From contig NC_134479.1 in NCBI RefSeq assembly GCF_964194025.1, positions 11,425,384 through 11,472,000 of the forward strand: DNA of 46,617 bases, given 5' to 3'. How positions within the stretch are numbered: the stretch's first letter is position 1; each line of letters opens with the position of its first letter. The position numbers were made by a program, and so were the translations under genes. The stretch is from Convolutriloba macropyga. Its lineage: Eukaryota. The notes below the pieces were generated by a model that worked only from the letters and a program-made list of their open reading frames with translations, was not told the DNA's origin and made no database searches. This document shows positions 24,847 to 46,245 of this stretch, piece after piece.

Positions 24847-24929
24847 AGTAGTAAATAATAAGAGCGTTAAGAGCGGGGGGTATTCATGCGATACTAAACA
24901 TGGGAATTTAGGGAGTGATCATGAGTGGG
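24847..24929 (+). repeat. Left terminal inverted repeat of the Maverick
   Basis: AGTAGTAAATAATAAGAGCGTTAAGAGC(G6)TATTCATGCGATACTAAACATGGGAATTTAGGGAGTGATCATGAGTGGG matches the reverse complement of 41913-42001, except for G-run length (6 vs 12) and one substitution. Confidence 0.95.
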
Positions 24930-25143
24930 AATTAGGTTAGGAGGGATTGAATGGTTTGTACATGTAAAACCTTTCCTTTCCACTTTATTCCAATCTTTCT
25001 TTCTCGCCGCTTTCTCAGTAGTCTTAGCGCTTTCAAAACACTCAATCAATTTAAATTAAAACCAAATACTTAACTCCATGCAAAATCAAGACCTGTACAG
25101 TTTTGCGTGCGCTTTTCTGCGCTATTAAATTTAATTACACTGT

Positions 25144-28100
25144 CTAATAATGCCTTGCAGTTTTAAACACTGGTTCTTCTGGTTCGCTTTCACTGGCTTC
25201 CTCTGCTTCAAAATTAATAAACGGGTTATCGGGACTGGAATTTTCATCCGAAATTGCATCAAAACCAACCAAATCCCTGCTCGCAATATCCGAATCGTTT
25301 ATCAATTCAGCAGCTAGAAAACCAGGGTCGGGTGGCTGCCATGTGTTGGAGCTTTGGTTGTTGGTTTCTGGAGACGATTGTGGCACAACGAAACTGTTAT
25401 CCCACTCAGGACTCGAACTTAGCTGTAAGTCACTAAAATTGCCAGAACTTTCATAATCCCACTCCACATCGTCGTCGCACCAATTTATTTCATCTATAGC
25501 ATAATCGCCCAGTTCATAGTGGCCAAAAGGGAGGGTTTTTATGCCATCGGGTAGTATGTAGCGTTTATTATCAAACGCTGACAGGCAGATTTTGTTTGTA
25601 GTTACTGTGCGCAACGAGTGGTGGTCAGAAACAATCCGGGTGTTCTCTGCACGTACACTGTTACCTGACAGCAGGGTATTCACAAAGTCTGCATGTCGTA
25701 GATGTTGTTGAGCAGCCTTCGTCACTCACTTTGCTGAGATTTTTCTACAACCTGAAAAGATGGAAAGAAAATGAGAAAAAATAGGCTCTATTTTGATTAC
25801 TAACCCCCTATATAATAACAATACACACTAACAACTTCCAGATGTTTACTAACCAACTATATATATTTATAGTAAAACTAATATTATTGATTTCAAGGAA
25901 AATAAACTTACTTGTCGACAGAATGGAGTAAAGCTTTGGCTTTAGGCAGATGAATTCGGTAATGTAGTCGCCGGCGAATTCATCCTTAAATTTAAGGACT
26001 ACTTTCTTATTACTGGCATTAAACAAGAAATGATCAGACGGGTAGTTTGAAAAATCGAAATGGCTCAGAACTGACTGCGGCTTTTCTGATAATTGCTTGT
26101 AGAAGTCCGGACTTTGAACAGAATATAAGAGGCTGTCCGTATCACTATATAATAGGCGACAGTTGAAGTTTGCACGCATGACCCGATTGTGGAAATAATA
26201 CATGTGATATTTCGCCAAATCTTAGATGGTGGCACCCACAACAGTTGGAGTGTTCCAAAAGATAGATTTTGAGCGTGTCGTCAAAGCAGCCATGTTTTCA
26301 CCGAATATCATGTAGCAGTCAAACTCGAACTTAGACACTACATTCAGCACTTGTTCAGCGTTACGCGTGATTGTATTTTTACTGCGACGTCGCTTAGATT
26401 CGCAGTTCTTGCCGTATACAGCGTTGTTCATTAACTTGCAAAAATTCTCCTCAAACTTATTAGCTGCGACTTGTTGTTTTTCACTGTTTAACGTGATATA
26501 TGGTGATAGCCAGCTTTCTTGGCGGAACTGCAGTACTCTATGCACTTTTTTGATTACAAGTCCAAGATCAATATACAGTTTGAGCAGTTTGTAGTGAACC
26601 ACATATCTCTCCTTATCAAAAAACGTTTGTAATAATTTCTTCGCTTTTGATGTGGGCAGGTTGTGTTGCTCTTTCAAATTAAGTTGGTATTCTCCCAACC
26701 ACTCCTCTTCAACAATGTCCTTGGTAGGGGCCAGGGGGAAATCCCGGTGATCGTCATGCAATCCTGGTGGGTATGAAAGATCGACCTCCACAAAATATCC
26801 CACGCTGGCGTTGTCGGGTGTGTCTAGGACCTCTTTAATTGTAACTTCTGTGTTGAATGCGAACTCTGAGAGGGGGAGTTTTTCAAGTTGCATCTCTCCT
26901 CCGTGTAAGTTGTTCGCATCAACACAGAAACCAAATTGATGATCTTCTGTGCTAATGTAGTTTGGAATGTATTGGTTATTAGCAATGAAGCACCGGTTTT
27001 CGTAGACAGAGGTGACGCCACCGCGGATTGCAGGCTCGATCATATCTAGATGTTCTCGCTCTGTCAATAACTCGACATTTGCTTTGCAGATCCTCAATGA
27101 AGCCTCTTTGGCCATATTGGGTAAAGTAAAAAAGTGCATGCAGTCCAACTTATAGGTAGTAAAACTCAATTCTCTGTGAAATTCACAGACACAGGCCAAT
27201 AGTGCGCAGTCTAATTTTAAGTAAGCGTCGTGGTAATCTTGAAGTGTTCCACAGCCAAGAATTTCCCACGTCCTGCTTGCATGATCTAAATTACTTTCTG
27301 TAATATTCACATTGCCACCGTCTAAGGTGTTTCCCCACTTTTCTAGTTGTGGTAGTTGTGTGTCAGAGAACTTGGCACGACTACTCATATACGAATAGGG
27401 ATAGTAGCCTTTCTGTTTTAGCAGCTGAATATTTTCACCCGAGACCGTCGGAAACATTGACTTCATTGTTTCAAATTGATTCGCCGGGAGTATTTCTACG
27501 AGTTTTTCAAGTGAACTATTCATCATTTTCAAGGAGTCGATGATCCGTAGATATTCATACACCTTCACCGTTGTCCCTTTTTTGTTAACAAATGTGTCAA
27601 TGAGCACACCAAAGGTCATAGATATATATTTTTCGTCCGTGGCTGGTATGACGCTGATAGTCGTTGTTGGTTCACAGTTGTTCAGAGCTAGGCAAATGTG
27701 GTGTTGGTCATAATTTTGTATGTTATGACCTACGACAGGAATGAAATTGATGTTTCTCCTTGCTCGGTTGCACTTTTCATGCGCCCACCCAAGAAATTTG
27801 CCACTATAGTGACAATGGTCTAATTCAATCGAGTTTTCTGGGTCTTCGACTTCCGAAAACGGTTTCTCACAAATCCAGCATTGTGTAGCTTGAGATTTGT
27901 CCAAACTTCGCCTGTCGCCTTTGAAAAACGGATATTTTCTTTTTTGCTTGTGGATGTCTCTTGCAAGCTTGTGTAGCGCTTTCACAAAATTAGCCATACA
28001 GTCCTCAGAACTGTCAACTTGGTAAAAAATTGGTTTGTTGGAGTGGTGATCAATTACTGTTATCGCAAACCGACACGGTTCATGAATCTCCTTTACTTGT

Positions 28101-29503
28101 GTAAATGCTCTGTTACTAGGTCCTTTGCATCCTGACACGGGTCTAAGAAATGACTCAAAGTCGAAATATATTACTAAAGGTACGAACCAAGTTGCAGAGA
28201 GGTTTGTAAATTTGTATGAATTTTGATCGCTTGAAGGCATGTGAATAACTGCGGGAGCGTTGTTGCCACAGTTAATCATGTGCACATTGTAACTTTCGAG
28301 GCCGTCTCGACATATCCAAAAGCAATTTCGAAAGATCCGAAAACAATAACGGAAGTCAACACGTCGTACGTAGCAAACGACTTTTACAAGGTGATTAATC
28401 AGTACATAGTGGTGATGATCGTGATCATACAACAAAATTAGATCCATTACAAATTCAGATTCGTATGATGAAATTTTAAGAGGAAAAAGTTGCCCGTTTT
28501 CGTAGCCAAACACATTAATTTGAACATCATTCAGTTTTTCGAATTAGGGAATATCTTCAAAGCCCATAGGCATATCGAATTCACCTAATGGTTGATGAAT
28601 TCCCGGTTGATTGTAAGTGGTCGGGGATGTTTTGGCAGTTTGGTAGTTCTGATCAACTCTGTCCAGACTTACTCCGTGATGTAGATGATATGCTGCTACA
28701 TAGCAATATCTGAAGCACTGCTGGTCTTCATGATTTCTAATGTTGAGCAGACCGCGACAATTGGCAATTTTAGTTGGCAGTGCAATATAGGACGAGCCGC
28801 GAATTGGTCTGAAACGTGCGAATTTGACATCTACTTTCAGCCTTTTTTCCAGTACCCATCCACTACCCATCGAAGCAAATGTCGTTAATACGCTCATCAT
28901 TTTTTCGACCATTCCCCAGTAGGCTGCAATCGTGAGACCGTTTGCGTAGACTGGAGTCATAAGTGTGTTGGCGTATATTTCGATGCGCTCATCTTCTGCA
29001 TTATCAGGCTGGTCATTGTGGTACTTTATCAGCTGTAGTTTTGCACACAACTGAACCTTCTGTGGCCCATGGCATAACTGCTCATTTATGAGGCTATCGA
29101 TTTTGGGTTTTTGAGCACGCATGAAGTTTTCAAGATCACGTGCTTCATCTGCGTCAGTTGTTTCAAACGTTCGCAAGAGGCCGTTGAAAGCACTTTCCGG
29201 TGGCGTATCTCTTGGTTCGAACTCTTCGCCAAATACGGGTAGAGAGTGCACAGAGTCCATATGCTGAGCATACAAGTGAGAGTCATTAAACCCAAGATGG
29301 CAACTGCAGCAACAGTTGGTGAATCGCGAGTGTTCGGTCCTCATGTGCTGCTCGAGATTCGAGATTTTTCGCGAAGTAAATTCGCATAATGAACACTGGT
29401 ATGTGGGTAAACCAAGTTCATCCGGGTGGAATTGATGTTCATGTCTAGTCCGATTGCTAGCTGTACTGAGTGAAGAATCGCAATAACGGCAAGGGTACAC
29501 CAT
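25144..29503 (-). pseudogene. Protein-primed family B DNA polymerase (pPolB), ~1399 codons after splicing; three in-frame nonsense codons and one intron
   Basis: ORFs 28544-29614, 26222-28513 and 25808-26218 share one frame and are separated only by TAA codons (EDIP*FEKLN, GATI*DLAK). Motifs are IYFDFES (ExoI), GHNIQNYD (ExoII), YLKLD (ExoIII), DANNLHG, KLMNNAVYGK, YSDTDS and KPKLYS. The last exon is 25144-25751 (ISAK*VTK...LSAFDNKRYIL). Confidence 0.95.
25752..25911 (-). other. Predicted 160-bp GT-AG spliceosomal intron in pPolB
   Basis: The donor is ACAA|GTAAGT and the acceptor is a pyrimidine tract plus TCTTTTCAG|. Removing the intron joins KPKLYSILST to SCRKISAK(*)VTKAAQ in frame. Confidence 0.85.
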
Positions 29504-31315
29504 TTTTAACTTGAATAGCAACGAAAGCTTTAGCTTGAGTAATAACAATTCAACTTTGGAAACGAAAGAACAGAAAATGGTTTCTGGGTTTTCTGAAATT
29601 TTAAAATGCTGCAACCTGATTGGTCGGTTTTGGCGGGCTTATTTTATTTCGAATTTTTGTAAAATTTTATATTTTAAAGCTAAATTTTTTCAATTTATTT
29701 CTCAAGATACCGTGAGAATAGGTGAGTGAGCAACTGACAGACAGAATGCGATGACTTTTTAAAGCAAAAAATGTAATTGGTTTGCAATTAAACGTGTTCA
29801 ATTTTGAATAAAACCCCACATAAGGGCGTTGTTTGACTACTGTCTGAAAGTGAATGTCATAGCAACGCTACGCAAAAGTTGTGGGAATCAAAAATGCTTG
29901 TGGCATCATGAAACGTAGGACCCCATTGAAAAAACTACTCCAGCATCATCAGAAAAAAAGTTAGTTTTTTCTGTCAATCAAGTCGTAAATTGTCAAAACA
30001 TGACAATTACATGACAGTTACACATGTTTTTTCTTTAAAAGCATTTTTCGATGACAGGTCTCAGAATAGAACTTCACATGATGCCGCCGGGGATTGCAAA
30101 TCTGCAAAAAACGGGGTTCTAACTCCTTTTTATCAGGTAGTTGGTGTTCTAATTAATGCCAGATGTTAATGGGACATGAATGGCCAGATGGTTTGGAAAT
30201 CGGTGAAGGAGCAGTTTTTCGACCTCGATGCTTATGAGCAAACTTGTCAAGCATAGCGAGGGCATTGCAAATCTGCAAAAAAATTGTCAATTTTTTTTAG
30301 TTAATTAGTAATTTGGCTGATTAAGCGCTAATTAGCTCCTAATTAAGGGCTAATTAATTCATTAATTATTTGTCTAAATTTGACGAGTGTGATGAGAGTT
30401 TTTGTAGCTCATTGTCTGCGGATGCCAATGAAACACTCCTTTTCATCCCAACTGTTTTTTGGAGCCCACTTTTTGGGGTCAAAGGTCACTGTTAATATGT
30501 TAAAAAACAGCAAAAAATTGCGTTTTTTAATGTTTTTCTCAAAAAATTTTTCTCAAACATCTTCTTTTTTAGCATCAGAACAGCCGGTTGGCAATTAGTT
30601 GATGATACCACATCCTTCTTTTACCGTGTTTTTGATAGTTTTACTTGTCATTTGATGTATAAATAGTACAATTTCAAAGTTTTCACCTAAGATTTACATT
30701 TTTTTGGCACTTTTAAGTTACTTTTACTGCATTTCTGTCATTTTTTTTTACAAAACGAGCGAGTATTATTGTTACGTATTACAACATGACACCTAACCAT
30801 CCATCTAAACACATTTTGCAAAATCTTATGACAATTTGTTGGATTTTCATTCCAAGAAAATTTGATTTTTTTTGTGATTTTTTTAAATTTAGTTTTACAA
30901 TAGTGCTTATTAGGGACAAGTTGATAGTATTAGTTGCTATTCAACACAGCAGCCGAAGAACTCTTTGCAATGAATTGAGTAACCAGGAAAAAAGTAGCAA
31001 AGATTTTGTTTTTCGTGGTTTATGTAATATATTGAAGCAACTAATTCTTACTGTTTTACGTTGAATAACTTTGTAAAATCCAATTCAAAGCACTCTATGA
31101 AGGAGCATAATTAAACAAAAGTTGAGACTTGATTTTTAAACGTGATTTCCATTGGCTAAAATTCTAGGTGCCTGCTCATGGGATAATTCAAAAGACAGAA
31201 CAAGTTCAAACATGTTCAATTTGAGAAAAACTGAAATCTTTGCAAATTTTTCATGTATAAACACCAAATAAACGCTTACATATAATTACACAAAAGAAAT
31301 AAATTATGGGAAGCT

Positions 31316-32095
31316 CTAAAATGAAGCAGAGAAAGTGATGCTGATAAAAAGTTTAGTCTTCAAAAAGCACCGAGAGATTAAAACCGACTTTCTTCTTTTA
31401 GGTGCTCTGCATACTTTTGGCGTCTCTAAATTGTTTGGAGGGATAGCCTTATCTTCTCCATCGCTCTCTGGAACTGGTGTTTTTGGTGATTCAAAGTTTG
31501 CCTCTGAAAGCATTGTAGTATCGGGTGTTTCTTGGCTTGTCGTTCCAATTCCAAATATACAAGGAACCTGATCTCTACTGAGTGCTGCGAAAAATGACGG
31601 GCTTGAGCTCTGAGGCGTTGTTGTGGCGCTAGGGTCACTCAGTGGAGTTGTCCTTAAGCTTTGCCCTGAAGAAATTGTTGGTGATGTAGGCGATAATTGA
31701 ATGCCCCAAAGACTGGCTAAATTGTCACGAGCATCTTAAGCTCCAAGTTGGTTTTCGAATAGTGGCACACAATTGCAATCATACTTGAAGAGAAGTTGCT
31801 TTGTCTCATCGGGTAATGTTGCAATGTCTTGAGGCTCACACGATTGCAGTTGTTGTGGAGGCACTAGACCACCAGAAGTTATAATACTTCCATGGGCAGG
31901 TAAGCTTTTTCCCGGCAAAGTGGCAACAAAATCGATAATTGGTTTTGGTATAATGAAGCGCTCTGATGTAATCCAATTTTTCTCAGAAAAGTCTTTATAC
32001 TGTTGAATAAAAACAACATAATTTTCGTACATAGTCTGATATACTAAAGTCCTTTGCCAGGACTCTTCAGAATCAGAGAGCAAATAAAAAGACAT
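31316..32095 (-). pseudogene. Maverick accessory ORF (~259 codons, one in-frame stop), globular N-terminus and S/T/P-rich tail with a PKRRK basic motif
   Basis: ORFs 31736-32176 and 31316-31513 share a frame, and reading through the TAA at 31736-31738 gives a continuous open frame. The ATG is at 32095. Confidence 0.55.
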
Positions 32096-32741
32096 TCTGA
32101 AATTTTGAAATTTCAAAAATTGTTCAAGCAAGCAATCGAGATCAGATAAAGAAAGAGATTGAAAGATAGAGAGCAACTAATGCTTCAGAGGAAAATGGTC
32201 GTAGTTGTTAAAACTAATTTGATTTTATGGTTCAGGCACTTCCTTAGGTCACAATTGTTTTCAATCCGCTAACTAAGATTTTGATCCCTTGCATATTACA
32301 CACAGGAAGACAAATTTATTGAAGCTAGCTGTTATCAGTGCACCAGACCAAAGTTTAACGACATATATTTATATGTCCCATGTTTAGTTTTAAGCTGTTT
32401 TATGCACACAACTTTTCTACATTTAGTTTTCCTTTTATTGCATTCTTTTCCTAGTGTGTATATATATTCCTATCAATTTGATCTCTGACCTTAATTGTAA
32501 TAAAGTTTCATGGACCCAACATGTTTCACTGCACGTGTTAATATATAAACAAACAAACACGTGCTTTATAGAATAGTAGTTTTCTACATGTTCAGTGTTC
32601 CTTTGGCCCAGATTTTCTGACACGTGTTTTATGTCTTTTTATCAATTTGATCTTTGAACTCTTTTTGCAATAAAATTCCATGGACCACGCACGTGATACG
32701 CATGTGTTTTACAGAGCGGTTTCCAAGTTAAAATGAATTAA

Positions 32742-32776
32742 CAGACTCAAGTACGCCGCTGGCGTACTTGAGTCTG
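32742..32776. repeat. Perfect 16-bp stem, 3-nt loop hairpin in the divergent intergenic region of the Maverick
   Basis: CAGACTCAAGTACGCC-GCT-GGCGTACTTGAGTCTG. Confidence 0.95.
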
Positions 32777-32945
32777 CATTTTCACACATGTAAACCTGTT
32801 TGCAATTAAAGACAGAGACGACACTTGTTTAATCCAAGCTTGCCAAGCCACTTTGGAGTGAGTGTTTCTTCGAGGTGGTCTGTTAAATTTTATATCGCAT
32901 TTCAAAAGAACCTGTTATCAGTATAACCAAAGACTAAGTTGAAAT

Positions 32946-33254
32946 ATGCCGTTATCTGCCACAAAAGATTCTGAGTTTGGGGATAGTTATTATGATATTT
33001 CAAAGACGGAAAAACGTCTAATCAAAATTTATGAGAAGACTGGAACGTATGTGTTTCTGAAACTATTCAAGAAAGTTGACGACGATTACGAATTTCAACA
33101 ACGGCTGTCACTGACTACCGAAGAACTTGATAAACTTATTAAAAAAGCGCCAAAAATTAGGGAAATTTTTCCACTCAGTTCACAAGAAGCTGAATCAAAA
33201 TCGAAGACTGACAGACCTTCTCCTGCTAAGAAAACGAAATTTAGCGCAACATAA
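32946..33254 (+). CDS. Putative PC4-like ssDNA-binding protein (102 aa)
   Basis: Intact ATG ORF. The segment YDISKTEKRLIKIYEKTGTYVFLKLFKKVDDDYEFQQRLSLTTEELDKLIKKAPKI follows the PC4 pattern (strands, then [IL]SLxxE..L helix). C-terminal PAKKTK is NLS-like. Fold is judged by eye. Confidence 0.55.
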   Translation: MPLSATKDSEFGDSYYDISKTEKRLIKIYEKTGTYVFLKLFKKVDDDYEFQQRLSLTTEELDKLIKKAPKIREIFPLSSQEAESKSKTDRPSPAKKTKFSAT

Positions 33255-33259
33255 AAGTC

Positions 33260-33985
33260 ATGGTTGAGGCAATGTTTGAGCGTTCACCTAGTTACTTCAA
33301 ACAGTTTCATAAACAGTTTAAATTTTTAGTCACTAATGAAAAAATTAACTGGTCAAGCGTGAAAAATTTTGCAGTGTGTTCCCATTTCGATTCAGAATTT
33401 TGTCAGTTGACAACAACGACATCTACTAACCATTTTCATGTTCTGATAGATACATCAGAAGCAGCAACAACTTACGATGACATTTTCAAACGAAACAAGG
33501 CTTTCCCCGTATCTTGTCTTTTCACAACTTCTCGATACTTGTTTTCATCAGCAGTGGATTTGGAGACAAAAGGCGATGTCTTTTTTAAATTGAAGTTAGC
33601 AGTTGATTTCAACATTAAGAACGAAGAAAAACCTGAGGCTGCAGCAACAGTGCGGAAGCGTTTACCAGCAATTGTTACTTTATCACAACAGCTACAAACG
33701 AAAACTGCTGGAAACTCAAACAAAAATAATGGAAATATTGTGAAGTCAGTGAAAACAACGGTGGCGCAGAAGTCAGTACACAACATGATTTTGCCGGGCA
33801 AGCAAACTCAAACAGACAATTTCAGTAGTGAAACTTTGCGTAGATTTGAATCAATTTTAACTGGTCCTCATTCTTGTGCTTTTTGTCGGATTATGGATAT
33901 TTTTGTGAGTGGTTATGGAAAGTTGAATATTGATACTGATTTGTTGTTCATTCGTTTTGTGTATGAAGAAAAAATTAAATTTTGA
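33260..33985 (+). CDS. Putative HUH-superfamily (Rep-like) endonuclease domain protein (241 aa)
   Basis: Intact ATG ORF starting 5 nt after the upstream stop. It has FLVT (22-25), AVCSH (38-42), HFHVLID (58-64) and RYL (Y93), in the order and spacing of rolling-circle Rep motifs I-III. No Walker A motif. Confidence 0.5.
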   Translation: MVEAMFERSPSYFKQFHKQFKFLVTNEKINWSSVKNFAVCSHFDSEFCQLTTTTSTNHFHVLIDTSEAATTYDDIFKRNKAFPVSCLFTTSRYLFSSAVDLETKGDVFFKLKLAVDFNIKNEEKPEAAATVRKRLPAIVTLSQQLQTKTAGNSNKNNGNIVKSVKTTVAQKSVHNMILPGKQTQTDNFSSETLRRFESILTGPHSCAFCRIMDIFVSGYGKLNIDTDLLFIRFVYEEKIKF

Positions 33986-34017
33986 AAAAATTGAATTTCA
34001 TTCAAGCATTAGTAGCG

Positions 34018-34448
34018 TTATGTCATCATCATATGAAGAGCAAACCGTATCAAATCATTATCACTACATTTAACAATGGGCTGAAAACTGAAAATAAGAT
34101 GAGCAATATAAATACAAAAAAGTCCACATAGTTTTGAGTCTCGACTTTGTATGGGCTGGTTTTCTAGAACTTGACATAGCTGAACATCTCCTTGGGTAGA
34201 AACCCGGGGTAGAAACTAGGGTAGAAACAAAATTGCTGCCCCAGAGGATCGGCAAAAATCAAATTCTTGTTTTTGACGCATAATAGGAGCCAATGTGTTC
34301 CAGCATTGTCAGACGTTGATGCATTGACTATTATAAACGAATTTGGTTGCAAAATTTTAGGGAAATTATTTGCTGCAATGAGACCCAGAAATTTGTGCTT
34401 CAGTTGCTTGCAGCGCTGTATTAAATCATTTACTTCGTCTTCGTTCAT
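34018..34448 (-). pseudogene. Adenain-like cysteine protease, frameshifted
   Basis: IIVN...AGTHW (His) and FADPLG (Asp), then in another frame QPIQSRDSKLCGLFCIY (Gln and Cys), with a stop at 34018-34020. The start overlaps the capsid stop (TAATG). Confidence 0.9.
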
Positions 34449-35731
34449 TAATTTGTCAATATATGGTTTTTCAACACACTTCGTGCACTGTCAACGTAAA
34501 TTGTACTTGTTTTTTCGCCAATTATAAAAAATTCAATATTGTTTTGAAGAGCCGTTGAGAACTTCAGTTCCACTGTTATTGAACTGTTTGTCAGCTCCGG
34601 GTGAATAAAATCATGGGAAGCCTGTTGCGTGCTGGTAAGGTCAAAAACCATAAGGAAATGGCTGGGATACTCGCTCAGTTTAATTCCATGACCGTTGTCA
34701 ATATAAGCCAAGTCGGATATTGTGTTAAAATAGAGACGTTTATCGCCATCTGTTGATATTGGACTATCCGCTACAGGCAGTCCGTTGCGATATATATATA
34801 TTTTTTCGAGACCAAATTTCCCATAATGAAACGGGTTGAGCATGTTATTGCCTAAGTAAGCTTCGTTAGTGTTTAAACAAATTGCAAGTCTGCGAATTGG
34901 TTCCCGCGAGAAATTATCCTCTTGCTTCCAACTATGGAGACCAGCTGAAGCCAAAAAAGTTTTTGTTATGGTTTCGAAGTAGGGATAAGATGCAGGACTA
35001 CTTAAAAAGTTTTTTTCAATGGCTGACATAACGTCATCATTTAGCGTCATCTTGCGGACATACAAATTGGCCTCTCAAATTTCTACATTGTAGTGTTTTG
35101 CAGGGTCATCGGACATGATGACAAAGTCATCAATAGAGCGTCTGAAAGCATTGCGAAGCGTAACACCGCTAAGCAGATGTCGATCACAGGTGAAGAAGTC
35201 AACGGCAACTTTTCCATAAAAAGCGCATTCGGCTGATTTTTTAACTAATTCTTTTCTCCTGTCAATTTCTGTTGTAGTTGACGTAGCCTTGACATGCTAG
35301 CCGTGTGTTTTTTGCGTCCTTGTTGTGTGAAAATTTGGTCTCGATAAAACATGCGCATAGTTGCCGTTGGCATTTGATATTTTTAGTCCATTAGCAGATA
35401 CGGTACAATCAGAAAATAATGAATGTAACACCTTGTTGCAAAAGTATGGAGCATCCGTATTCGCTTTGTCAGTAGGAGCTCCTGCATCATATTTCAAATC
35501 AGCTCCAGACGACTGAACAATTTTACGTTTGATTTCGAGAAAAATTTTTTGTAAATCTATTAAATTGTTTCGATCACCAGAGACTTCAAGTTCTAACATA
35601 GGTCAATTTGGACTGTAGACAGGCCCCAATTTTTGGCAGAAACTTCCATCAAACGTTAATAAGAGAGCTGGCTTTTCAAATGAATCCAGAGAACTGTGAG
35701 TTGCTTCTGTTGGCAACAAATTAGCGATCAT
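34448..35731 (-). pseudogene. Major capsid protein (double jelly-roll, Polinton PY/hexon-like), disrupted
   Basis: The N-terminus MIANLLPTEATHSSLDSFEKP is followed by LEVSGDRNNLIDL, LHSLFSDCTVSANG, YVRKM, GNNMLNPFHY, FLMVFDLT and VELKFSTAL, which are typical Polinton MCP segments. It has one stop and several frameshifts. Confidence 0.88.
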
Positions 35732-36157
35732 CGTTAACTTTGGCGAAAAAATCTGACCGACTTCTTTTCAGGGGCTTCCGAGTGGAAATGATGTTTTTCC
35801 GTTTGGTTACTGCTGCTGACTTTTTGGAAGAGCTCATTGACCAACTTCTTGGTCTACGTTGTCGTAGTGTTCTTTTCCGTGATCCGCCGGTCTGTTTTTT
35901 AACGTATTAGAAATGGTGTTCTTGAACGCTTGCTTTTGAGATTTTTTACTGCTTACCACGTCTAGTAGCTCCGGAACGATCTGTTTCAACAGTTCCTTTC
36001 CAATTCGTTTGAAGGTCGGTAGAATGCATCGACGTATTAAGGGTAGAGCAACACGGCCAATACCCGCAGCCAAAGCTCCAAAGCCACTACCTCTTTGTCG
36101 ATAGTATCCAGAAAATTTCGGCAAAGAAGTTGCTTCATTTGCGTATTATGAATCCAT
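35721..36157 (-). pseudogene. Small virion protein with an amphipathic helix and basic tail (adenovirus pVI/core-like Polinton protein)
   Basis: MDS*YANEATSLPKFSGYYRQRGSGFGALAAGIGRVALPLIRR..., then after a frameshift KQTGGSRKRTLRQRRPR...RSRSDFF. QRGSG and QTGG resemble protease cleavage sites. It lies between the penton and MCP genes. Confidence 0.7.
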
Positions 36158-36158
36158 T

Positions 36159-37045
36159 TTAACTTGAAAACTTTTTGAATTGTAACGTCAAGAGAACTTT
36201 TCCTGTTCCCGAGAAGGGAACCAAGTTACCTGTTTCTGTTCGCAGCTCAATAGAAATGGATTGAATTGTGTTTGTCAGTAGCTTTTTGTAATCCAAGTTC
36301 GAAAAAACTATTCGATGTGTTGGTTCCACGTCGCACACACTACCGTTTTTTAGAAGCTGTTTTGAATCAATGACTCGTAAAAGAGGCGCTTTGGCATCAC
36401 CCACGTACTGATATTCAATAATGTTTGCATATACAAATATCAAGTGTTTACCAGCCAACAGATCCGGTGGTAGCTCTCCATAATAAGCTTTTGTGTCGTC
36501 ACTTTTCATTAGTTTATCTGCAGTCGTGTTCATTTTATAGCCAATATGGATACCATTGCCATCAGGAACTCCCTGAAAACCACGGATACTTGGAATTTCC
36601 TTGCTTAGAAACGTAATCCCTTCACGTTTTCCAAACAAAAAATTTCGTATTTTCCAGAATTTTTTATTTCTCTGAAGGAAAAGTGAGGCAGTCCGGCTGT
36701 ACGCTTTATTAATGCTAGAAGCTGATTTACTGTTTCAAATGTCCCTGGAATAAAGCCTAATTTTAATCCATTGTATGGTCGTGAGATAACATTGGCGTCT
36801 GCGGCCCTTTTCGTATCTTCTTCATATTCTTTCAAGCTGAAAGCAATAAAATCCCCCTCCACAACGTTTTCAATTTGCGTTGGAAAGATAATTTCACTCA
36901 ACGCTACCCTCCAGTCGCCAGAAAGTTGAATTCCATCCTTAAAAAAAATTCGAAATGACGCCAGTGTATTTGATTTGAATATTTGCATCGATGCAGATGA
37001 TATAACATGTACTGTGAACTCATCTTCAAATTGATTGCGAGCCAT
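36159..37045 (-). pseudogene. Minor capsid protein (penton, single jelly-roll), one frameshift near 36640
   Basis: FTVHVISSASMQIFKSNTLASF, GDWRVALSEIIFP, IFVYANIIEYQYVGDAKAPLLRVI and ISIELRTETGNLVPF...LTLQFK are characteristic Polinton penton motifs. Confidence 0.9.
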
Positions 37046-37046
37046 T

Positions 37047-37976
37047 TTATTCGCTGCGTTCACGAACCAGCTGTAATTCTGGTTGATAGAATTCACCCTC
37101 TATTTTTTCTTTGTTTGCATCAATAATAGAGTAGGTTGGCGGCGACAACGTCGGAATATCTGTAATCTCAAGTACCTCGTCAGTAAAGGATTGTTTGTAT
37201 GCCTTTCTGAACGCTTTGTCCTTTTTGACAATTCTAACAAAGTCTCCGATATAAAACTTGGGTTTTTGACGGATACTTGTTTGAGCACTCAGTGAGACCA
37301 GCCTCGGTACATTTTTCTTTGTAACCTTATTTGGGGCAAGTTTTGTGACCCGGTTAACACGTGAATTAATTGTGTTCACAAACTGATCCTATTTATCAAT
37401 ATAAGAGTATGTCCAGTTTTCTTCAAGGTATCTGTAGATGATATTTTTCAGCGAGCGAATGTTTCTTTCTGCAAAAGCAGACTTTTTTTCACTAAAGGTG
37501 CTATATAAATGAATCCCTCTTTTCTCACACAAGCTTTTGAAAGCTTCAAGAAACTCTGTACCATCGTCAACCCATATTTTTAATGGTTGTTTGTACTTGA
37601 TCATTTTTTTTGAATGCTTGGCCTGCTTCTGTTGCATATTTATTTTTCATTGGTTCTACTCTTAGATATCGTGACAGACAGTCAACTGCTACCAAAAGGT
37701 ATTTGACATCTCGATTGTACTTTGCAAGTTTATCAACATGAGCTAAATCAAGAGACCAAGTTTCATTAATGTCCTTTACAATGACTTTCAGTCTTGGAAA
37801 CCTTGAACGAATTGAGCGTATTTTGTGAAGGATGGTTTTGCTTCTAAATATGACCTCACTTTAGCCATTGACATTTTGCTTTGTGTATGAAGTCGCTTTG
37901 GGCTACCAAAAGAAGCAAGGCCTTTTGAATAAAGCTGCTCCAAGGTTTTTTCTCTCAGAAGAAGAAAGGATCCCAT
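37047..37976 (-). pseudogene. Retroviral-like DDE integrase, disrupted
   Basis: WSLDLAHV (D), YLLVAVDCLSRY, IWVDDGTEF (D), KSAFAERNIRSLK (E) and C-terminal KFYIGDFVRI...GEFYQPEL. There are frameshifts near 37815 and 37610 and a stop at 37389. No chromodomain. Confidence 0.93.
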
Positions 37977-38721
37977 TTTTTTGGTTGACTCTCTTTTTTG
38001 TTTGTCTTTTTGATTTTGACCTTTTTTCCTGTTGTGGCTCGTTTTGGGTTACCGCTTCCTGATTGTGGACTTTGTTGGGTTGGGAAGAATTCTTGTTCAC
38101 TTTCATAGGCTTGTATAGTTTGCTTGGCGTAAGTGTTTGCAACAAGTTCAGGCTCAACCGGGAGAAGAGCTAAAATTTTAGAGTATTCTGATTGATCAAT
38201 TTTTTAGTAGGATGCTGTAAATCATACAAAAATTTGGAGACTTGTACACTTGTTGGTTCTTGATTGATGTATAGTAACTTGCTTTCCTCTCCAATTGTAA
38301 CTGTTTCCGATTGGAAGATAAGATCAAGCAAAATTTCTGCACGTTGGATTTTGTGTTTTTCTTTCAGTTTCACAAGCCCCATTATTGATTCAAAACTTGC
38401 GTGGGCACTTTCTGGTTTTTATGTGACAACTGGATCAATTTCGCTGTCATCACTAATCGAGTCCATTTTTTCGGGCTCGTCTACTTGTTTGTCCTGCTCT
38501 GTTAACACTGGCTCTGTTTGAACTACTCCATCTGTTCTTTCCACGCTGTCCTCGGAACTTGGCATATTTCTTTGCATGAGTGTTAACTGAGCTGCTCTGT
38601 TTCTATAGGCTGGGTTGTCCAGAATTTCGTTTTTTAATGGTTGTTTCGACATGAACATTCGCTTTGGAATCAGAAAAAATTCTTCTGCATGCACTATGGT
38701 TTTTTCAGGAACAGAAAACAA
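37955..38721 (-). pseudogene. Polinton protein of unknown function upstream of the integrase, disrupted
   Basis: ORFs 38419-38721 and 38170-38382 are in frame across a TAA. A frameshifted tail ends KKWDPFFF*. The position and the EEFFLIP...KKW pattern resemble a recurring Polinton ORF. Confidence 0.55.
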
Positions 38722-38971
38722 GCAAAATTAACCGTTTTTACTAGTTCTATTTCTCTCGCAAAAATTTCCTTTTTCGTCTTCAAACTTGTCTGTTTAGATA
38801 AAATTTTTCTGAATGAGCTGTCTGCGGTTTCTATCAAGTTTTTGTTGATGGGCACGTTACCATTAACTACGTTCAGGAAGCATTCGCAAAGAAAATAAAA
38901 AACTTTTTAGTTGCTGACTTGAATATCTTTTTTAAGTTGATATCCGATACTTGTAGCATTTGCTGAAGCAT
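38694..38971 (-). pseudogene. Small conserved Polinton protein (CECxLNxxxGNVP family), frameshifted; absent from the ORF track
   Basis: Manual translation gives MLQQMLQVSDINLKKIFKSATKKF, a frameshift, then LCECFLNVVNGNVPINKNLIE...LKTKKEIF...*. It overlaps the end of the ATPase gene. Confidence 0.7.
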
Positions 38972-39634
38972 ACATATTTCTTTCTCTTTCATCGGTTAAA
39001 TTTTTAATAACAGCTTTTGCTGGAGGTAAGTAAAAAATTGAGGGGCCTGGAGGCAGAATATTAGAGGAACAACGTAACGCGTCTGACGTTTTTGGGTCGA
39101 GATCAATTAATAAGTGACCAAAAGATTGCTTTGTTGCTAACTCGTAACTTTCTCTAAAAATTGTGTGTTGTTGAGTTGTCGACCAATTAAACCAATTTGT
39201 TGAACATCACGAGGCGATTTAAATAAAATAATGTGTGTTGTATTAAGATCAATAGTTCTGGACCATTTGCTCTGTTAAAACAAGGTGTGTTTCACGTATA
39301 TCACACTGATTTTCTTATGACGTCCAGCAGTCGCTAATTTAGAAAATTCTTTATCATTAAAAATTTCTTCATATGAATCGTCAAATACCAAAAGGCAATC
39401 ATCTAGTTCTGATATTTGCTCAAAACTGGAAAACTTCATAAACTGAATGTTTATTTTTCTCTCAATGAACTGAAATTTAGGTTGTTCATGCTGGTAGAAA
39501 TAAAATATTGATTCAAACTTGGGTGAGAAGGTGTTTTGAAGTAACATTTTGAAAATCAATTCAGTTTTTCCACAACATGATGGGCCACAAACAGCCATAA
39601 AAAGTCTATCGGTAGTTGAAATTATTTTATTCAT
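38907..39634 (-). pseudogene. A32/FtsK-like genome packaging ATPase, disrupted
   Basis: Walker A GPSCCGKT, Walker B LLVFDD and AGRHKKISVIYVKH. After a TAA at 39275 it continues QSKWSRTIDLNTTHIILFKSPRD, and after a frameshift FGHLLIDLDPKT. Confidence 0.93.
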
Positions 39635-39902
39635 AGTTTCGGGTTAGATAGAGCGTATCCGACTGTGCAAGAAAGGAGTGAAAACCAGAATGTTGATTTT
39701 TCACAATCGAGTTTAAAAAACACCAATTTGACCAAAGAAACACCTATAAGAAAAATTATTATAAAAAATTTGGGTAAAATAAACCAGATCTTATCACTCT
39801 AGAGTTACAAAACCGCCAAGATCGCCTTTCTTGGTGATTTTCGTCAAAAACTAAGTCAGTTATAGCTCCTCCAACGTCAATGGTGTCCTCGGGTTGGGTC
39901 AT
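39631..39902 (-). pseudogene. Small protein with two hydrophobic segments (membrane-type) upstream of the ATPase, frameshifted; absent from the ORF track
   Basis: MTQPEDTIDVGGAITDLVFDENHQERRSWRFCNSRVIRS, a frameshift, then FIIIFLIGVSLVKLVFFKLDCEKSTFWFSLLSCTVGYALSNPKL*. Its stop overlaps the ATPase start (ATGA). Confidence 0.7.
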
Positions 39903-40097
39903 TTGAAACAGTTTATTAAATTAAACAATGAATTGAAACTCAGGCTCATGCATAATTAATTGAGAATAAAAAATTCATAACAAACAAATTGTGAGTTTTC
40001 ATCAGTTTTTTTATAAGCATTGTCAGTTTTATCTCTGAACACAACTGACTCAAAGTTGCTGTCTCTGATGCTCTCCTTAATTTCAGCCGGAAGACGT

Positions 40098-40427
40098 TCA
40101 TCTGTTGGAGATATCTGAACTGGTACTGCATGCTTGGGCGTAGGTAAAGGGATTAGTTTCAGTCTTCGCGCTTTCTCTTGAATAGACTTGGTATAATTTG
40201 AAATATTCTAAGAGGGAAAGGTATTTTTTCAGTGTCTCTATTTCTGTTTCAGTACAGGTAACTTGTTGCTTCCTTAGCACAGTTTGACCACGGGTATCAA
40301 CTTTCTCTTCTTTAACAAATGTAACGGTTAGCTGTTCTTCAGCCGTTATGTAACTGTAAACTGTCAAATTTGGAGACAAATTCACCTGAAGGAGAGATGG
40401 AGTTGATTTTTCCAAACGACGACTCAT
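40098..40427 (-). CDS. Maverick accessory protein (109 aa), unknown function, possibly PC4-like
   Basis: ATG ORF overlapping the end of the upstream gene, with an alternating strand pattern followed by VTCTETEIETLKKYL. Confidence 0.45.
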   Translation of the reverse strand: MSRRLEKSTPSLLQVNLSPNLTVYSYITAEEQLTVTFVKEEKVDTRGQTVLRKQQVTCTETEIETLKKYLSLLEYFKLYQVYSRESAKTETNPFTYAQACSTSSDISNR

Positions 40428-40923
40428 TCGTCAGCCACTGATAAAACAATTTGGCCTTCTTATTAGCACATTGTCTACTTCGTTGTCGTTTGGGACAACT
40501 TACCGCATGTAATTCACTATTTGGTATGTCGCGATATAATTTTAGGTTTTCAACCTTTGGACATAACAACGTCTCCAAACTGATAACGTCTCTTTGGAGT
40601 AACTTCTTCAAAGTGTCCGCCTTTTCAGTTCCTTTTGCATAAAATTCGGCAAACGGAAAACGAATTTTGATGCTTTGAATAATTCGCTTCAAATAGCAAT
40701 AGGGGTAATCTCCGCTCTCCCAAGCCAAACCATGAAGAAATTTTGAAACCCACTGGTATGACTTTTGTTCACTTGAGTAAAGTATATTGAATGAACTTGG
40801 GGGTAGGAAAGAAACTGTATCACTGTAATTATGAGAACACACAGAAAGATCTTTGATTATAAAAGCCGATTTCTTTTGTCGAAAGCCTTCAATATCAAGA
40901 ACAACTGGTCGCAGTTTCAACAT
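40339..40923 (-). CDS. Maverick accessory protein (194 aa), DnaQ/DEDD exonuclease-like
   Basis: Intact ORF with N-terminal VVLDIEGF (ExoI-like DxE), LHGLAW, FYAKGTEK, LCP and a C-terminal H...C...CA cluster. Confidence 0.6.
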   Translation of the reverse strand: MLKLRPVVLDIEGFRQKKSAFIIKDLSVCSHNYSDTVSFLPPSSFNILYSSEQKSYQWVSKFLHGLAWESGDYPYCYLKRIIQSIKIRFPFAEFYAKGTEKADTLKKLLQRDVISLETLLCPKVENLKLYRDIPNSELHAVSCPKRQRSRQCANKKAKLFYQWLTNESSFGKINSISPSGEFVSKFDSLQLHNG

Positions 40924-40928
40924 TCCAA

Positions 40929-41360
40929 TTAACTAAACAAATTTTTCTTAAATGTCTTCACATAGAGACAGAAAGCGATGCCTGTCACGTGACCGAGATA
41001 CTCATTTGTGACTGGACAGGGCAATACGTAAGAATAACCTGGTCCTTTTTCGCTGTGTTCAAAGACAAAACCGGAAGCGTCATGGAGAATAGCATGCAAC
41101 CTTAAAATTTTGTAAGCTTTGAAGTATTTGTCAAGTGTAGAATTGTCAATACCAATGAGCCCACCACAGGTTCTTAACTTCAATGCAATATCCAAATCAA
41201 GATCAGGATCCAAGTAAAAACAAGTTGCTAAGAAATACAGATACCTTTCACTATACCCTGAATATTCTTTTTTCACTTGCTGGTATAACTCGTGAATACT
41301 TTTCAAATCAACCGTTGCAATCGTTGCCATTGGGCGGTCCTCTGAGAAATGACACTTCAA
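40929..41360 (-). CDS. Maverick accessory protein (143 aa), possible phospholipase A2-like
   Basis: Open frame with GGLIG followed by a helical LHAILHDASG (HD dyad) and GPGYSY. The assignment is tentative. Confidence 0.45.
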   Translation of the reverse strand: MKCHFSEDRPMATIATVDLKSIHELYQQVKKEYSGYSERYLYFLATCFYLDPDLDLDIALKLRTCGGLIGIDNSTLDKYFKAYKILRLHAILHDASGFVFEHSEKGPGYSYVLPCPVTNEYLGHVTGIAFCLYVKTFKKNLFS

Positions 41361-41534
41361 ACTTATTCACCCAGTTTTTGTCGTATAGGGAAGAGATAGA
41401 AACATAGAAAACAAAAATATTGAGAATTTGCATTTTAATTCAACCAATCCTATTCCCACTGTTAAGGTTTTCAACGGTGACCCATTTAACTCCCCCCATC
41501 TTTCCACCCCTATAATTTTATGACCGCTTAAGAT

Positions 41535-41956
41535 AATCCCCTTTATTCCCATGTTTATTCATCGTAAAAATACCCACTTGAAATAACCCCCTATATTCCC
41601 ATGTTTAAGTATCGTAAAAAATACCGATTTAAAAACCCCCTATATTCCCATATTTAAGTATCGTATTATTTCCCACTCAGCATAAGGCCCTTTATGCACA
41701 CGTTTATGATCCCAGGAATTCCAACTTGGGATCACTCTCTATATTCACATGTTTAAGTATCGTAAAAAAATACCCACCTAAAAAACCCCCTATATTCCCA
41801 TGTTCAAGTATCATAAAAGACCCAATTAATGTCATCCCCTATATTTTCATGTTTAATTACCACAAGGATTACCCTCTCACCATAACCCCCTGAAATCACA
41901 TATTTTAGAATACCCACTCATGATCACTCCCTATATTCCCATGTTTAGTATCGCAT
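41535..41956. repeat. Subterminal tandem array of about nine ~50-bp units at the right end of the Maverick
   Basis: CCCCTATATTCCCATGTTTAAGTATCGTAAAAAATACC variants start near 41538, 41587, 41636, 41687, 41736, 41786, 41837, 41886 and 41929. Confidence 0.85.
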
Positions 41957-42001
41957 GAATACCCCCCCCCCCCGCTCTTAACGCTCTTATTATTTACTAC
42001 T
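41913..42001 (-). repeat. Right terminal inverted repeat of the Maverick
   Basis: Ends ...GCTCTTAACGCTCTTATTATTTACTACT, followed by the TSD CATACA. Confidence 0.95.
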
Positions 42002-44089
42002 CATACATCCATCGCGTTGGTGGCACACCTCGAAGAGGTGCCACAAACAACGAAAAAGCCTTCCTAATGCTACCGGAACATGAATTACCCTTCACTGTAT
42101 GCTAACTGCCGCGAAAATGCCCATCTTACAATCTGACATCGACCCTCAAAAAATGAACTGAAGAACCGATATGAACTTCAGATCATTCAACGCACATTTG
42201 ACCGAGTTACATGAAACTACAAAGCGATCGTTTGTCGCTTATTGCAAATTTGTTTAGATGCAAAAGAATAACAAAGTTTTCAACGCTGAGAAGCTGGATC
42301 TGGCAGGATTTACCAAGTCTTTAGGGTTTATAACGGTTCAGCGATTGTGGTTTTTGAAAAACTCAAATATTTCGATACCATCATTGGGCAACATTTTACT
42401 AGAGAATAATAAGGAAACGTTAATAGGAAGCAAATCGGATCATCTGCAACTTTCTTTGCAGTCTATGAACCATATAGAAGACCCCTTAGTAAGGAAAAAT
42501 CCAAACCAAAGCAAACAGTTTTTGAATGTCCGGAACCTGAACCTCAAAATTCTGCATGTTTGAACAATCCCGTTAAGAAAAAAGTCTACAACTGCTGCCA
42601 AGCGTGCCAAAATTTTGAAACGAATGATTATTAAAGTTCACCGACAGATTAAATATGATAGCAATGAAAATAACGAATCTTCACGAATCGCTCAGAAATC
42701 AGAAATGATGGTATAAATGTTAATGCACTTCGAGAGAAAGTAAAATCAGGAAGCAAAGCTGATAAATTGAGAAAACTGAAAGTATTCAAAGAAATCCAAC
42801 ACGAAAAAGAGCAACAAGAGAGGGTAATGAACGTTCAGATTATTCAGATGCTGAAAACAGACAAAGCTAGACGGACACATTTAAACAAGAAAATGTTTCA
42901 ATTGAGCTTGATAATGAGATGAGTGTCAACGAGTCATTCAGTAAACGAAAGAAAAGGAAAATTGACGTTAAAGATGAAACTGAAGTTAAACAAGAACCTG
43001 AAGATATTGCAAAGTCGGACTTGTTCGATTATGAATCTCTTGCTCAGCAAGAAATTTCATTTCACAACTAATGGAAAGATAAAACTTTTTTAAAAAAATG
43101 ACTTGTTTGATTCAATCAGATTATAGAAGATTTTTTTATTGGAGGTCAAATTTTGCCGGAGCATAATTTTTGGTGCCGATTTTATGCACCGAGAAAAAGA
43201 AATAAAATTTAACGTGGATTTTTCTGTCGTTTTTGACAACCCCTGAATGTCAATGATGTAAATGATGAATCATTTCACACTCGTAATAACGATCATTATT
43301 GGCAACTGAATGTTTTAATTAAGTTCGATTACACCTCAATGGGTTGATAGTAGGCCATTGCGAATATATCATACGACTACAAAAGCCCCAAATGCCACAA
43401 AAATATTAAAATTGCAAGAAAAAATTTGCACGAGAGAAAAAAAGTTGACATCATTAAAACTGTAGGCTTTCCACTCAAAACAATGTGATTCATTGGGTCT
43501 GTAGGACCCATCAGTAAAGTGGCCTGTCATTTTTGTCATAAGACAAAAAGAGACCAAAAACAGACGACATATATATGGAATTATACAAAGTTAATAAATT
43601 TTTATGAAAATTCTTAGTATCAAAAGCAAAACCATTTGGTAAAACATTATAGCGCCGAAGTGGATCATTTTTTGCTTCAATCGAAAGAGATAGGACCTGT
43701 CAATAATGGGACTGAGCTATCAGTGACCGAAGTACAAAGGTATTTTTTTTAAAAAAAAAACAAATATGTTCAATGCCATAGGAGCCCTAAGTTATAAATT
43801 GAAAACATGAGTTAGTTCCACTAATACCACTCCTGGACGTCAATTGAATTTTCGATTAAAAGAGTAAGCCACGAGACTGCAAAATTGCAGGCAATATTCA
43901 AGCTTTCAATAAAAGCCTTGAAAAACTTCTTCAGGGTAATATATTCTCGGAAAATTTATTTTCATTTAGCCTCATTTGCACGTAACTGAAATCTTCTATT
44001 ATTAGACCCTCTATAGGAAAATTGAATCCTATATATTAAACGCGTGGCACCAAAAATGGACAAAATTTTTGCATGTTTGAGGGCCTCTC

Positions 44090-45470: not shown

Positions 45471-45898
45471 ATAAAATCTAAAAAGTTTTGCAATTCGACA
45501 AAGAAGAGTTAGGCAGTTTCGATCCGTGGAGTGACTGTGGCATAGTCAGGAGTAGGTGTACTTCGTGTCCCAATCGCAACAAGTGGTCATTCAACTCAGT
45601 CAGTTTGCAACTGGATGCTTCATTTGTGATTTGATTGCCGGAACAGAGAACATACTCAATACTGATGCCAAATATGTCAAATTAAAGCAAAATAGCAAAC
45701 ACCTTATGATGATTCGGTCCATTACCTTAGTTTCTATGCATTTAGAAATAAAAAATCAAGTTTTCAATGTCAATTATAAACATCCGTGGCTTATCAATTC
45801 AACTATTCAATTGAGTTTTTCTTTGAACTATATTTGAGTACTGCTTAAGGAAACTTTTTAAGCGTTCCTAAAAAAAGACTGGAGAGAGATCTAACCAG

Positions 45899-46245
45899 AC
45901 TATGGTTCGGTACTAACTTTTATGCAACTATGAGACAAAAATAACCAGACTATGATTCACACTGTTGTGAACTTTCAAGCCCATTTTTCGAAAGAATGCG
46001 AGTATGAGAGGGAATTAGTCATACTATGATTCGCGATATCGCAAACTTCAAAGCCCATTTTTCGAAATAATGCGACTATGGGGGGAATTGACCAGACTAT
46101 GATTCGCGATGTTGCAAACTTGAAACCCATTTTTCGAAATTATGTTACTACGAGAGGGAATTTATCACACTATGATTCGCAATGTTTCGATCATTTAGGC
46201 CTATTTTTTGAAATAATTCGACTATGAGTGGGAATTAAACAAACA
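45899..46245. repeat. Tandem ~74-bp repeat (about 4 units plus a partial one)
   Basis: ACTATGATTCGCGAT...CCCATTTTTCGAAATAATGCGACTATGAGAGGGAATT variants near 45949, 46023, 46095 and 46169. Confidence 0.8.

Follow-up and report, generated by a model that had tools for sequence, protein, structure and literature searches.

Does a gene with Rep-like motifs, found in a mobile element equipped with a DNA polymerase, encode an enzyme that nicks DNA or a protein that only holds it? The question is raised by a gene of 241 amino acids (aa), called the target below, in a degraded Polinton/Maverick element of Convolutriloba macropyga. The element lies within a stretch of 46,617 nucleotides (contig NC_134479.1, positions 11,425,384 to 11,472,000 of the forward strand), which was analysed as a whole and is referred to as the window. 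A preliminary description, made from the sequence alone, had noticed that short motifs of the target follow the order and rough spacing of those in the Rep proteins of CRESS-DNA viruses, and had proposed a helicase-less HUH endonuclease-like domain, either a minimal nickase or an inactivated origin-binding derivative. The positions of all main features, numbered from the first letter of the window, are collected in Table 1.

The target has a predicted Rep-like fold, five nearly invariant His and Cys residues and no conserved Tyr; a linker carrying a TQT motif joins its N-terminal domain (N-domain) to a C-terminal domain, and its gene occupies a fixed position among its neighbours. The reading favoured here, to which we give roughly an even chance, is that of a Tyr-less HUH derivative which would bind a metal, probably Zn, and would hold single-stranded or hairpin DNA during protein-primed replication.

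Predicted fold and conserved residues

The AlphaFold2 model of the target, with a mean per-residue confidence (pLDDT) of 82.6, comprises an N-domain (residues 1-134), a disordered linker and a C-terminal domain. The core of the N-domain is built of strands 20-25, 37-41, 59-64, 81-83 and 102-104 and of a helix at 87-94, and model residues 18-110 align to residues 14-112 of PCV2 Rep. The motifs on which the preliminary description relied are all present in the translation: FLVT at 22-25, AVCSH ending at H42, HFHVLID at 58-64, SRYLF with Y93, and DLETKG at 100-105.

When the model was compared with 48,161 representative PDB chains, ranks 1-14 were all taken by HUH Reps or origin-binding domains (OBDs), and the model shows the Rep-type beta-sheet with flanking helices, at modest Z-scores. 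The same five-stranded sheet is found in the Reps of CRESS viruses (nanovirus 6H8O, circovirus 7KII/6WDZ, geminivirus 6WE0), in RepB of pMV158 and in parvovirus NS1/AAV Rep, with Z-scores of 4.0-5.7 and root-mean-square deviations (rmsd) of 3.1-4.5. The top match is the nanovirus Rep (Z 5.7, rmsd 3.2, 82 aligned residues); other values are 5.0 for duck circovirus, 4.9 for RepB, 4.5 for E1, 4.0 for both AAV5 and SV40, and 3.9 for SIRV1 ORF119, the highest-scoring unrelated chain reaching 3.8. Within a set of 339 chains preselected by Foldseek, rows 1-30 all belong to Rep or OBD families. The search of BFVD produced one match at E<=0.001, a parvovirus NS1 (E 9.7e-4), and NS1 or Rep is given in 19 of the 21 named rows, a further 29 rows being unnamed. 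The case for the fold is made by the consistency of these lists, not by any one score, and the assignment of the modelled N-domain to the HUH/Rep type is probably right.

The profile of the family scored 26.2 against that of 32 parvoviral nuclease domains, compared with 11.8+-2.2 (maximum 18.8) for 40 column shuffles and 12.7 for the reversed control. H58 and H60 fall on the HUH pair of the parvoviral domains, and this register ranks first against both Rep sets. By ungapped sliding of profiles, the catalytic Tyr corresponds to position 92 (best) or 93 (second) against the parvoviral set, and its register is not fixed against CRESS Reps. H42 is located, in the model, at the end of the strand preceding the HxH strand, and is a candidate for the third ligand. 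PCV2 Rep binds its metal through E48, H57 and Q59 and uses Y96 as nucleophile (PMC7826260). Given Y96 and the alignment of the model to PCV2, the placing of Y93 at the catalytic position by the preliminary description was reasonable as far as register goes. For the Zn site of MVM NS1, mentioned in the title of PDB 3WRN, no usable description was found in the literature.

Relatives of the target were found in 155 cases among 445 candidates, and in 230 among 2514 when a profile was used. Since 372 clusters at 50% identity match it at E<=1e-3, the open reading frame (ORF) is more than a product of chance. The relatives listed are all ENA or Logan proteins without names, and full-length members mostly measure 190-245 aa. 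IMG/VR and GTDB genomes yielded no relative of the target or of the ORF upstream of it, and two scans of JGI data gave 0 loci and one locus with a target relative, respectively. Searches of Pfam, PHROGs, NCBIfam and PDB sequences, with the protein or its alignments, returned nothing significant, and one family member matches Rep_OBD at E 0.08. Matches to MCR-1 (E 0.06) were rejected, as the alignment misses the conserved His and Cys residues. No relative of 558-2000 aa occurs among 5957 candidates, which is weak evidence, and none of 32 parvoviral SF3 domains has a match in the window at E<0.1, which together justify the term helicase-less used in the preliminary description; the single Walker A motif in the element is that of the packaging ATPase.

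Conservation was evaluated on a main alignment of 74 sequences, picked for coverage and diversity from the collected proteins (265 plus), and on a second selection, made independently, of 65 sequences with identities below 70%, drawn from the 144 of 265 proteins that cover the domain. In the main alignment C86 is kept in 74 of 74 rows, H42 in 69 of 72, H58 in 69 of 73, and H60 and C48 in 68 of 73 each; the same five residues are kept in 59-62 of the 65 sequences of the independent selection, and all are invariant in 20 distant rows. C86, the sole fully invariant residue, stands at the beginning of the helix on which Reps bear their Tyr. The parallel with Rep motifs stands for the HxH pair, which is conserved and in register, and does not extend to FLVT and Y93. 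Positions 22-25 hold an aromatic, a variable, an aliphatic and a variable residue, the strand itself being present, while F, T, N and N are found in motif I of 103-106 of the 108 CRESS Reps.

At position 93 Tyr is found in 11 of the 74 rows, together with Leu (19), Phe (15) and His (9), and needs 7 changes on a quick maximum-likelihood tree. The top Tyr column of the N-domain reaches 48 of 73, and every such column mixes with Phe; position 117, for instance, holds Tyr in 41 rows and Phe in 25, the present copy among the latter. Of the 61 rows with all five His and Cys residues, nine have a Tyr at 92-94 and nine have none anywhere in 86-121, these Tyr-free rows including the representative of a 66-member cluster. 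No Lys or Arg is conserved at Y+3 or Y+4 in the alignment, and in the present copy these places are taken by S96 and S97, in agreement with the earlier remark that the Lys of YxxK is absent. In two control sets, neither of them chosen by the catalytic Tyr, this residue is invariant (108 of 108 CRESS Reps, 32 of 32 parvoviral NS1), and the proposal of a minimal nickase acting through Y93 is not supported. With motif III lost, the target does not, judged by its sequence, belong to the active HUH endonucleases.

Linker, C-terminal domain and neighbouring genes

The linker varies between 7 and 126 aa across the family. The most frequent residues at its end fit the LC8/DYNLL motif [DS]KX[TVI]Q[TV][DE], as defined in PMC3078936. 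In 34 of 71 rows the part [TVI]Q[TV][DE] stands at a single column, with one further occurrence at another place and a rate of 2% among shuffled sequences; its three-residue core is found in 46 of 71 rows (28 of 45 distant ones), and the full seven-position motif in 9 of 71. The present copy fits from -3 to +2 and is preceded by a region of low pLDDT.

The C-terminal domain is modelled with confidence (pLDDT 87) and is slightly better conserved than the N-domain, with a mean identity of 48% versus 40%. Its best PDB match has a Z-score of 2.8, and neither BFVD nor the ESM Atlas provided a structural match. A homodimer prediction, in which the alignment was not used, scored 0.00, which is no verdict and counts as evidence in neither direction. 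The interval 33260..33600 of the preliminary description takes in residues 1-113, the N-terminal part of the protein; the gene itself runs on to 33985. New relative to that description are the TQT motif, the C-terminal domain, C48, C86 and the Polinton context. In a distant clade (P0175, P0185, P0210, P0217, P0221, P0229 and P0258) a Cys-rich tail of CxCxxC type is found, possibly a second metal site, and the linker of P0217 is long and carries more than one QT motif.

The upstream partner ORF, which by eye resembles the single-stranded DNA (ssDNA)-binding protein PC4/Sub1, lacks in the present copy 4 residues that are found in relatives. The protease gene converges on the target from downstream. 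A metagenome contig (L245) shows the same gene order and orientation, with identities of 29% for the target, 49% for the upstream ORF and 42% for the protease. A profile of the upstream ORF matches 18 of 369 collected proteins: four consist of that ORF alone, and were those from which the profile was built, and the other 14 are target homologues reading through from the upstream ORF, one of them marginal. A second ORF of PC4-like appearance is seen by eye at 40098-40427 (- strand), and does not match the upstream ORF.

The inverted repeat upstream of the two genes is the only stem longer than 10 bp in the element, 20 resamples giving maxima of 8-12. Its folding z-scores are -5.3 as DNA and -7.0 as RNA. 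Related copies from two runs cover the base adjoining it, and many of them carry a variant that adds one pair. The hairpin is a candidate DNA binding site or RNA hairpin, a role as RNA being equally open. Just upstream of it lies an imperfect direct repeat (32461-32516 and 32630-32686, with a spacing of about 170 nt), and a 23-nt repeat with a spacing of 171 nt is found at 30089 and 30260.

Functional readings of the target

In the favoured reading the N-domain derives from an HUH Rep nuclease domain, most likely that of a parvovirus or CRESS virus, and has lost the helicase and the catalytic Tyr and Lys. As the cutting Tyr is lost while the five-residue metal site is kept, the target probably grips DNA rather than cutting it. 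We infer for it metal binding, DNA binding, dimerisation and a role in replication, in the following way. H42, H58 and H60 would occupy the HUH metal site, and C48 and C86 would add ligands, giving a tightly bound, probably Zn, site with a structural or phosphate-binding function. The N-domain would retain a face for ssDNA or hairpins without nicking them. Host LC8 (DYNLL), bound to the TQT motif, and the C-terminal domain may between them produce a dimer or a higher assembly, with two DNA-binding heads on flexible arms. Its partner would be the upstream ssDNA-binding-like protein, and its substrate the displaced single strand or the terminal panhandle made in replication by the protein-primed polymerase (pPolB), the 16-bp hairpin and the terminal inverted repeats (TIRs) being candidate sites. 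Comparable roles in replication are those of the DNA-binding protein DBP in adenovirus and of p5 and p6 in phi29.

With HUH Reps the target shares the HxH on the central strand, and on the preceding strand it has a conserved candidate for a further ligand; it differs from them in lacking a conserved Tyr or Lys and an SF3 helicase, in having two extra conserved Cys residues, another type of C-terminal domain and a TQT motif, and in residing in a pPolB element. As far as can be judged by analogy, it would work like the OBDs of papillomavirus E1 and polyomavirus large T, which have the Rep fold without the nicking Tyr (Z 3.9-4.5). The papova OBDs have lost the metal His residues. Of the two branches of the preliminary description, the inactivated origin-binding derivative is the better one, with the difference that in the target the His triad is retained and joined by two Cys. 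Papova OBDs are described as inactivated, non-nicking HUH derivatives (PMC13595969); they are fused to an SF3 helicase, whereas the target stands alone with its His3Cys2 set.

Helicase-less HUH domains are also found in other virus-like elements of double-stranded DNA (dsDNA). Mriyaviruses have stand-alone HUH endonucleases that keep motif III (Yx2-3K) and are predicted to be active, in genomes without a DNA polymerase (PMC11253617); polinton-like viruses (PLVs) resembling nucleocytoplasmic large DNA viruses (NCLDV) carry HUH genes (10.64898/2026.06.19.733378), and virophages of the Gulliviroviridae carry nickases like the circovirus Rep (10.64898/2026.10.13.758929). The target resembles these, as well as SIRV1 ORF119, and from the descriptions it is set apart from the mriyaviral proteins by the pPolB of its element and the loss of Tyr. 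An HUH gene is not named in the text or the readable supplement of PMC8502044, HUH is not mentioned in the accessible passages of PMC11131425 and has one unrelated use in those of PMC11071296, and a report of an HUH gene in pPolB Polintons was not met in the literature searched (including PMC11296320, PMC11662393 and PMC4061559 in their accessible parts); the family is possibly catalogued under a neutral name.

Traffic of genes between parvoviruses and Polintons is known (PMC4061559). Bidnaviruses are a mirror image of the present case: they kept the SF3 helicase and replaced the HUH domain by pPolB, while the present element combines pPolB with an HUH-fold domain and has no helicase. The target would also testify to a transfer of genes from ssDNA viruses into Polintons, the reverse of the bidnavirus case. 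Alongside the papova OBDs, it seems to represent another independent case of an inactivated HUH Rep domain, yet with the metal site kept and extended, and a conserved two-gene module of Polintons gains a structural identity. To our knowledge, the replication of Polintons has yet to be dissected, and the majority of their accessory genes lack annotation.

Several results weigh against a non-cutting, DNA-gripping HUH derivative. The Z-scores of 3.9-5.7 fall short of 7-8, which according to the tool is the usual top value even for models lacking a clear match, and a Foldseek search of the PDB yielded nothing at E<=0.001. Comparison by hhalign with 108 CRESS Reps was null (probability 0.25%), and the match to the parvovirus profile, with a probability of just 17.6%, rests on the HxH strand; among the 25 of 30 Pfam families listed at E<=1 for the 74 members, Viral_Rep, Gemini_AL1 and Rep_N do not occur. 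Whether H42 lines up with the third ligand of Reps is ambiguous, this register being second best against CRESS Reps and unsupported against parvoviruses. The N-domain is weakly basic, with a net charge of +2. The PC4 identity of the upstream ORF found no library match, and conservation of the hairpin can be observed at one adjacent position alone. LC8 is a dimerisation hub for disordered partners, and many TQT peptides fail to bind it (both PMC6607443). The strict conservation of the His triad is how an active site looks, and the ESM Atlas features, given below, suggest another family.

The main alternative, which we consider unlikely, though not negligible, makes the target an HUH nuclease or transferase that is active without Tyr. 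The catalytic metal would be held by some of the five His and Cys residues, with H42, C86 or water as the nucleophile, and the enzyme would nick or resolve hairpins or panhandles as the element replicates or is excised. Five near-invariant His and Cys residues exceed the needs of one tetrahedral site, the perfect hairpin lies upstream, and the full invariance of C86 at the start of the Tyr-bearing helix would suit a nucleophile; a precedent for a nucleophilic His is the relaxase MobM (PMC5863519). The missing Lys or Arg at Y+3 or Y+4 speaks against it. So does the fact that protein-primed replication with an integrase has no need of a nick, and position 42 would map to a Rep metal ligand (compare E48, H57 and Q59 of PCV2, PMC7826260). 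A more elaborate form, in our judgement improbable, sees a parvovirus or CRESS HUH domain, domesticated by a clade of pPolB Polintons, as a Tyr-independent His3Cys2 metallo-enzyme, with a His or Cys nucleophile or a hydrolytic mechanism, which would be dimerised by LC8 and would nick or resolve the hairpin or panhandle with a PC4-like partner. If true, this would account for a step of Polinton replication, excision or end-processing, that is so far unexplained, and it would be the reciprocal counterpart to the exchange of genes that gave rise to the bidnaviruses; activity of the domain without Tyr would be new chemistry in the HUH superfamily.

The hairpin can also be read as duplex DNA. The target could then be a sequence-specific dsDNA-binding transcription regulator or origin-binding factor, dimerised by LC8 and using its HUH fold on the palindrome as E1 and T-antigen OBDs do, and we hold this, too, to be unlikely. 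The E1 and T-antigen OBDs are among the top structural rows, with alignments reaching residue 118-122, a palindrome placed ahead of the gene pair that includes the target would suit as the operator of a dimer, and PC4/Sub1 proteins are also co-activators. On the other hand, the top matches are ssDNA-nicking Reps and not OBDs, though by a Z gap of about 1, the target keeps the His pair that the OBDs lost, and a perfect arm of 16 bp with a 3-nt spacer exceeds what a small dimer needs and suggests a hairpin.

An origin from an inactivated archaeo-eukaryotic primase (AEP) of C962R type, whose RNA recognition motif (RRM)-like core with a His strand would resemble the HUH fold, is very unlikely. It is suggested by the ESM Atlas, where 25 of 30 matches carry the feature PF23162 AEP_C962R (best 0.96), with statistics that are not established for parts of proteins, and inactivated AEPs are common in related viruses (PMC11253617). 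It was ranked low because a conserved acidic triad is missing, no N-domain column being acidic in more than 85% of the 74 rows, and because the fold searches prefer HUH proteins, which come first in all three. AEP and IS200/IS605 TnpA chains are not among the 50 rows listed from the two comparisons with PDB chains, which does not imply their exclusion.

A conventional Tyr nickase, acting through Y93, at or beside the catalytic register, or through the frequent Tyr at position 117, on the next helix as in IS200/IS605-type enzymes, is largely refuted by the rarity of Tyr at 93, the Phe at 117 and the Tyr-free rows among the sequences compared, and is most improbable.

The host element and its surroundings

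Table 1. Features of the target gene and of its host element (window positions; dot, no strand)
Feature	Position	Strand	Remarks
Degraded Polinton/Maverick	24847..42001	.	17,155 bp
Left TIR	24847..24933	.	6-bp target-site duplication 24841-24846
Right TIR	41909..42001	.	6-bp target-site duplication 42002-42007
Pfam matches PF03175, PF02945, PF00096	25144..29614	-	E 6e-5, 4e-5 and 2e-4
Perfect 16-bp inverted repeat, 3-nt loop	32742..32776	.	170 nt upstream of partner ORF
Upstream partner ORF, PC4/Sub1-like by eye	32946..33254	+	102 aa; ends 5 nt before target gene
Target gene, conserved Polinton accessory protein	33260..33985	+	241 aa; HUH-fold domain, linker, C-terminal domain
HUH/Rep-like core	33311..33589	+	residues 18-110; conserved H42, C48, H58, H60, C86; Y93 variable
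Predicted disordered linker	33668..33808	+	residues 137-183; pLDDT block means 45-53 over 141-180
LC8/DYNLL-type motif, predicted from sequence	33797..33817	+	residues 180-186; K-x-T-Q-T-D core
C-terminal helix-helix-strand-strand domain, conserved	33827..33982	+	about residues 190-241
Adenain-type cysteine protease, convergent	34030..34448	-	split into two frames; Peptidase_C5 E 0.006
Retroviral-type integrase pieces	37047..37637	-	best PDB matches integrases, E 0.04 (weak), and motifs by eye
A32-type packaging ATPase fragment	39275..39634	-	PF04665 E 8e-7

The TIRs match over 34 nt at 100% and 59 nt at 97% and begin with AGT repeats, and the target-site duplication (TSD) of 6 bp is perfect. 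Pfam matches identify an A32 ATPase, a pPolB into which an Endonuclease VII is inserted and, weakly, an adenovirus-type protease; the ATPase scores above the curated cut-off, the pPolB and the protease below it. The copy is regarded as degraded because its core genes are in pieces. Candidates for the double and single jelly-roll capsid proteins are ORFs chosen by eye at 34.4-37.1 kb, with no Pfam or PHROG match. All 30 bins of the element are covered by contigs from 3 of 4 public runs, many pieces being divergent, and one contig runs from position 42002 into sequence that looks, by eye, like the left flank, as expected of an empty site.

In its pPolB, integrase, ATPase, adenain, TIRs and 6-bp TSD the element is like the adintoviruses of the Alpha class (PMC8502044). 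The supplementary map of Alpha adintoviruses in the same paper labels MAEL, PLA2X, MOSUB and SSDBP genes, and ORFs neighbouring the target resemble these gene types by eye. The ORFs at 40339-40923 and 40929-41360 (both - strand) look like a DEDD/MAEL-type exonuclease and a PLA2-like protein, and have no library match.

Eight copies of a unit of about 50 nt are found at the right end (41519-41961), the outermost within the TIR; with a single copy at the left end, the ends of the element are asymmetric. Fragments of a DEAD-box helicase gene (SPB4/DBP4-like) flank the element, at 21791-22003 (by eye) and 42258-42563 (CTE_SPB4, E 1e-4), and their presence on both sides indicates that it is probably intronic. 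The fragments mark the host as a eukaryote, and the type of element suggests an animal. A depth of 206 in one public run suggests that the site of insertion is itself repetitive. Beyond the element, host repeats are found at 44067-45474, 4524-4802/7863-8101, 45877-46305, 2809-2856 and 14762-14812; they include nested inverted repeats resembling miniature inverted-repeat transposable elements (MITEs), tandem arrays of 30-nt and 74-nt units, and two hairpins of 19-20 bp.
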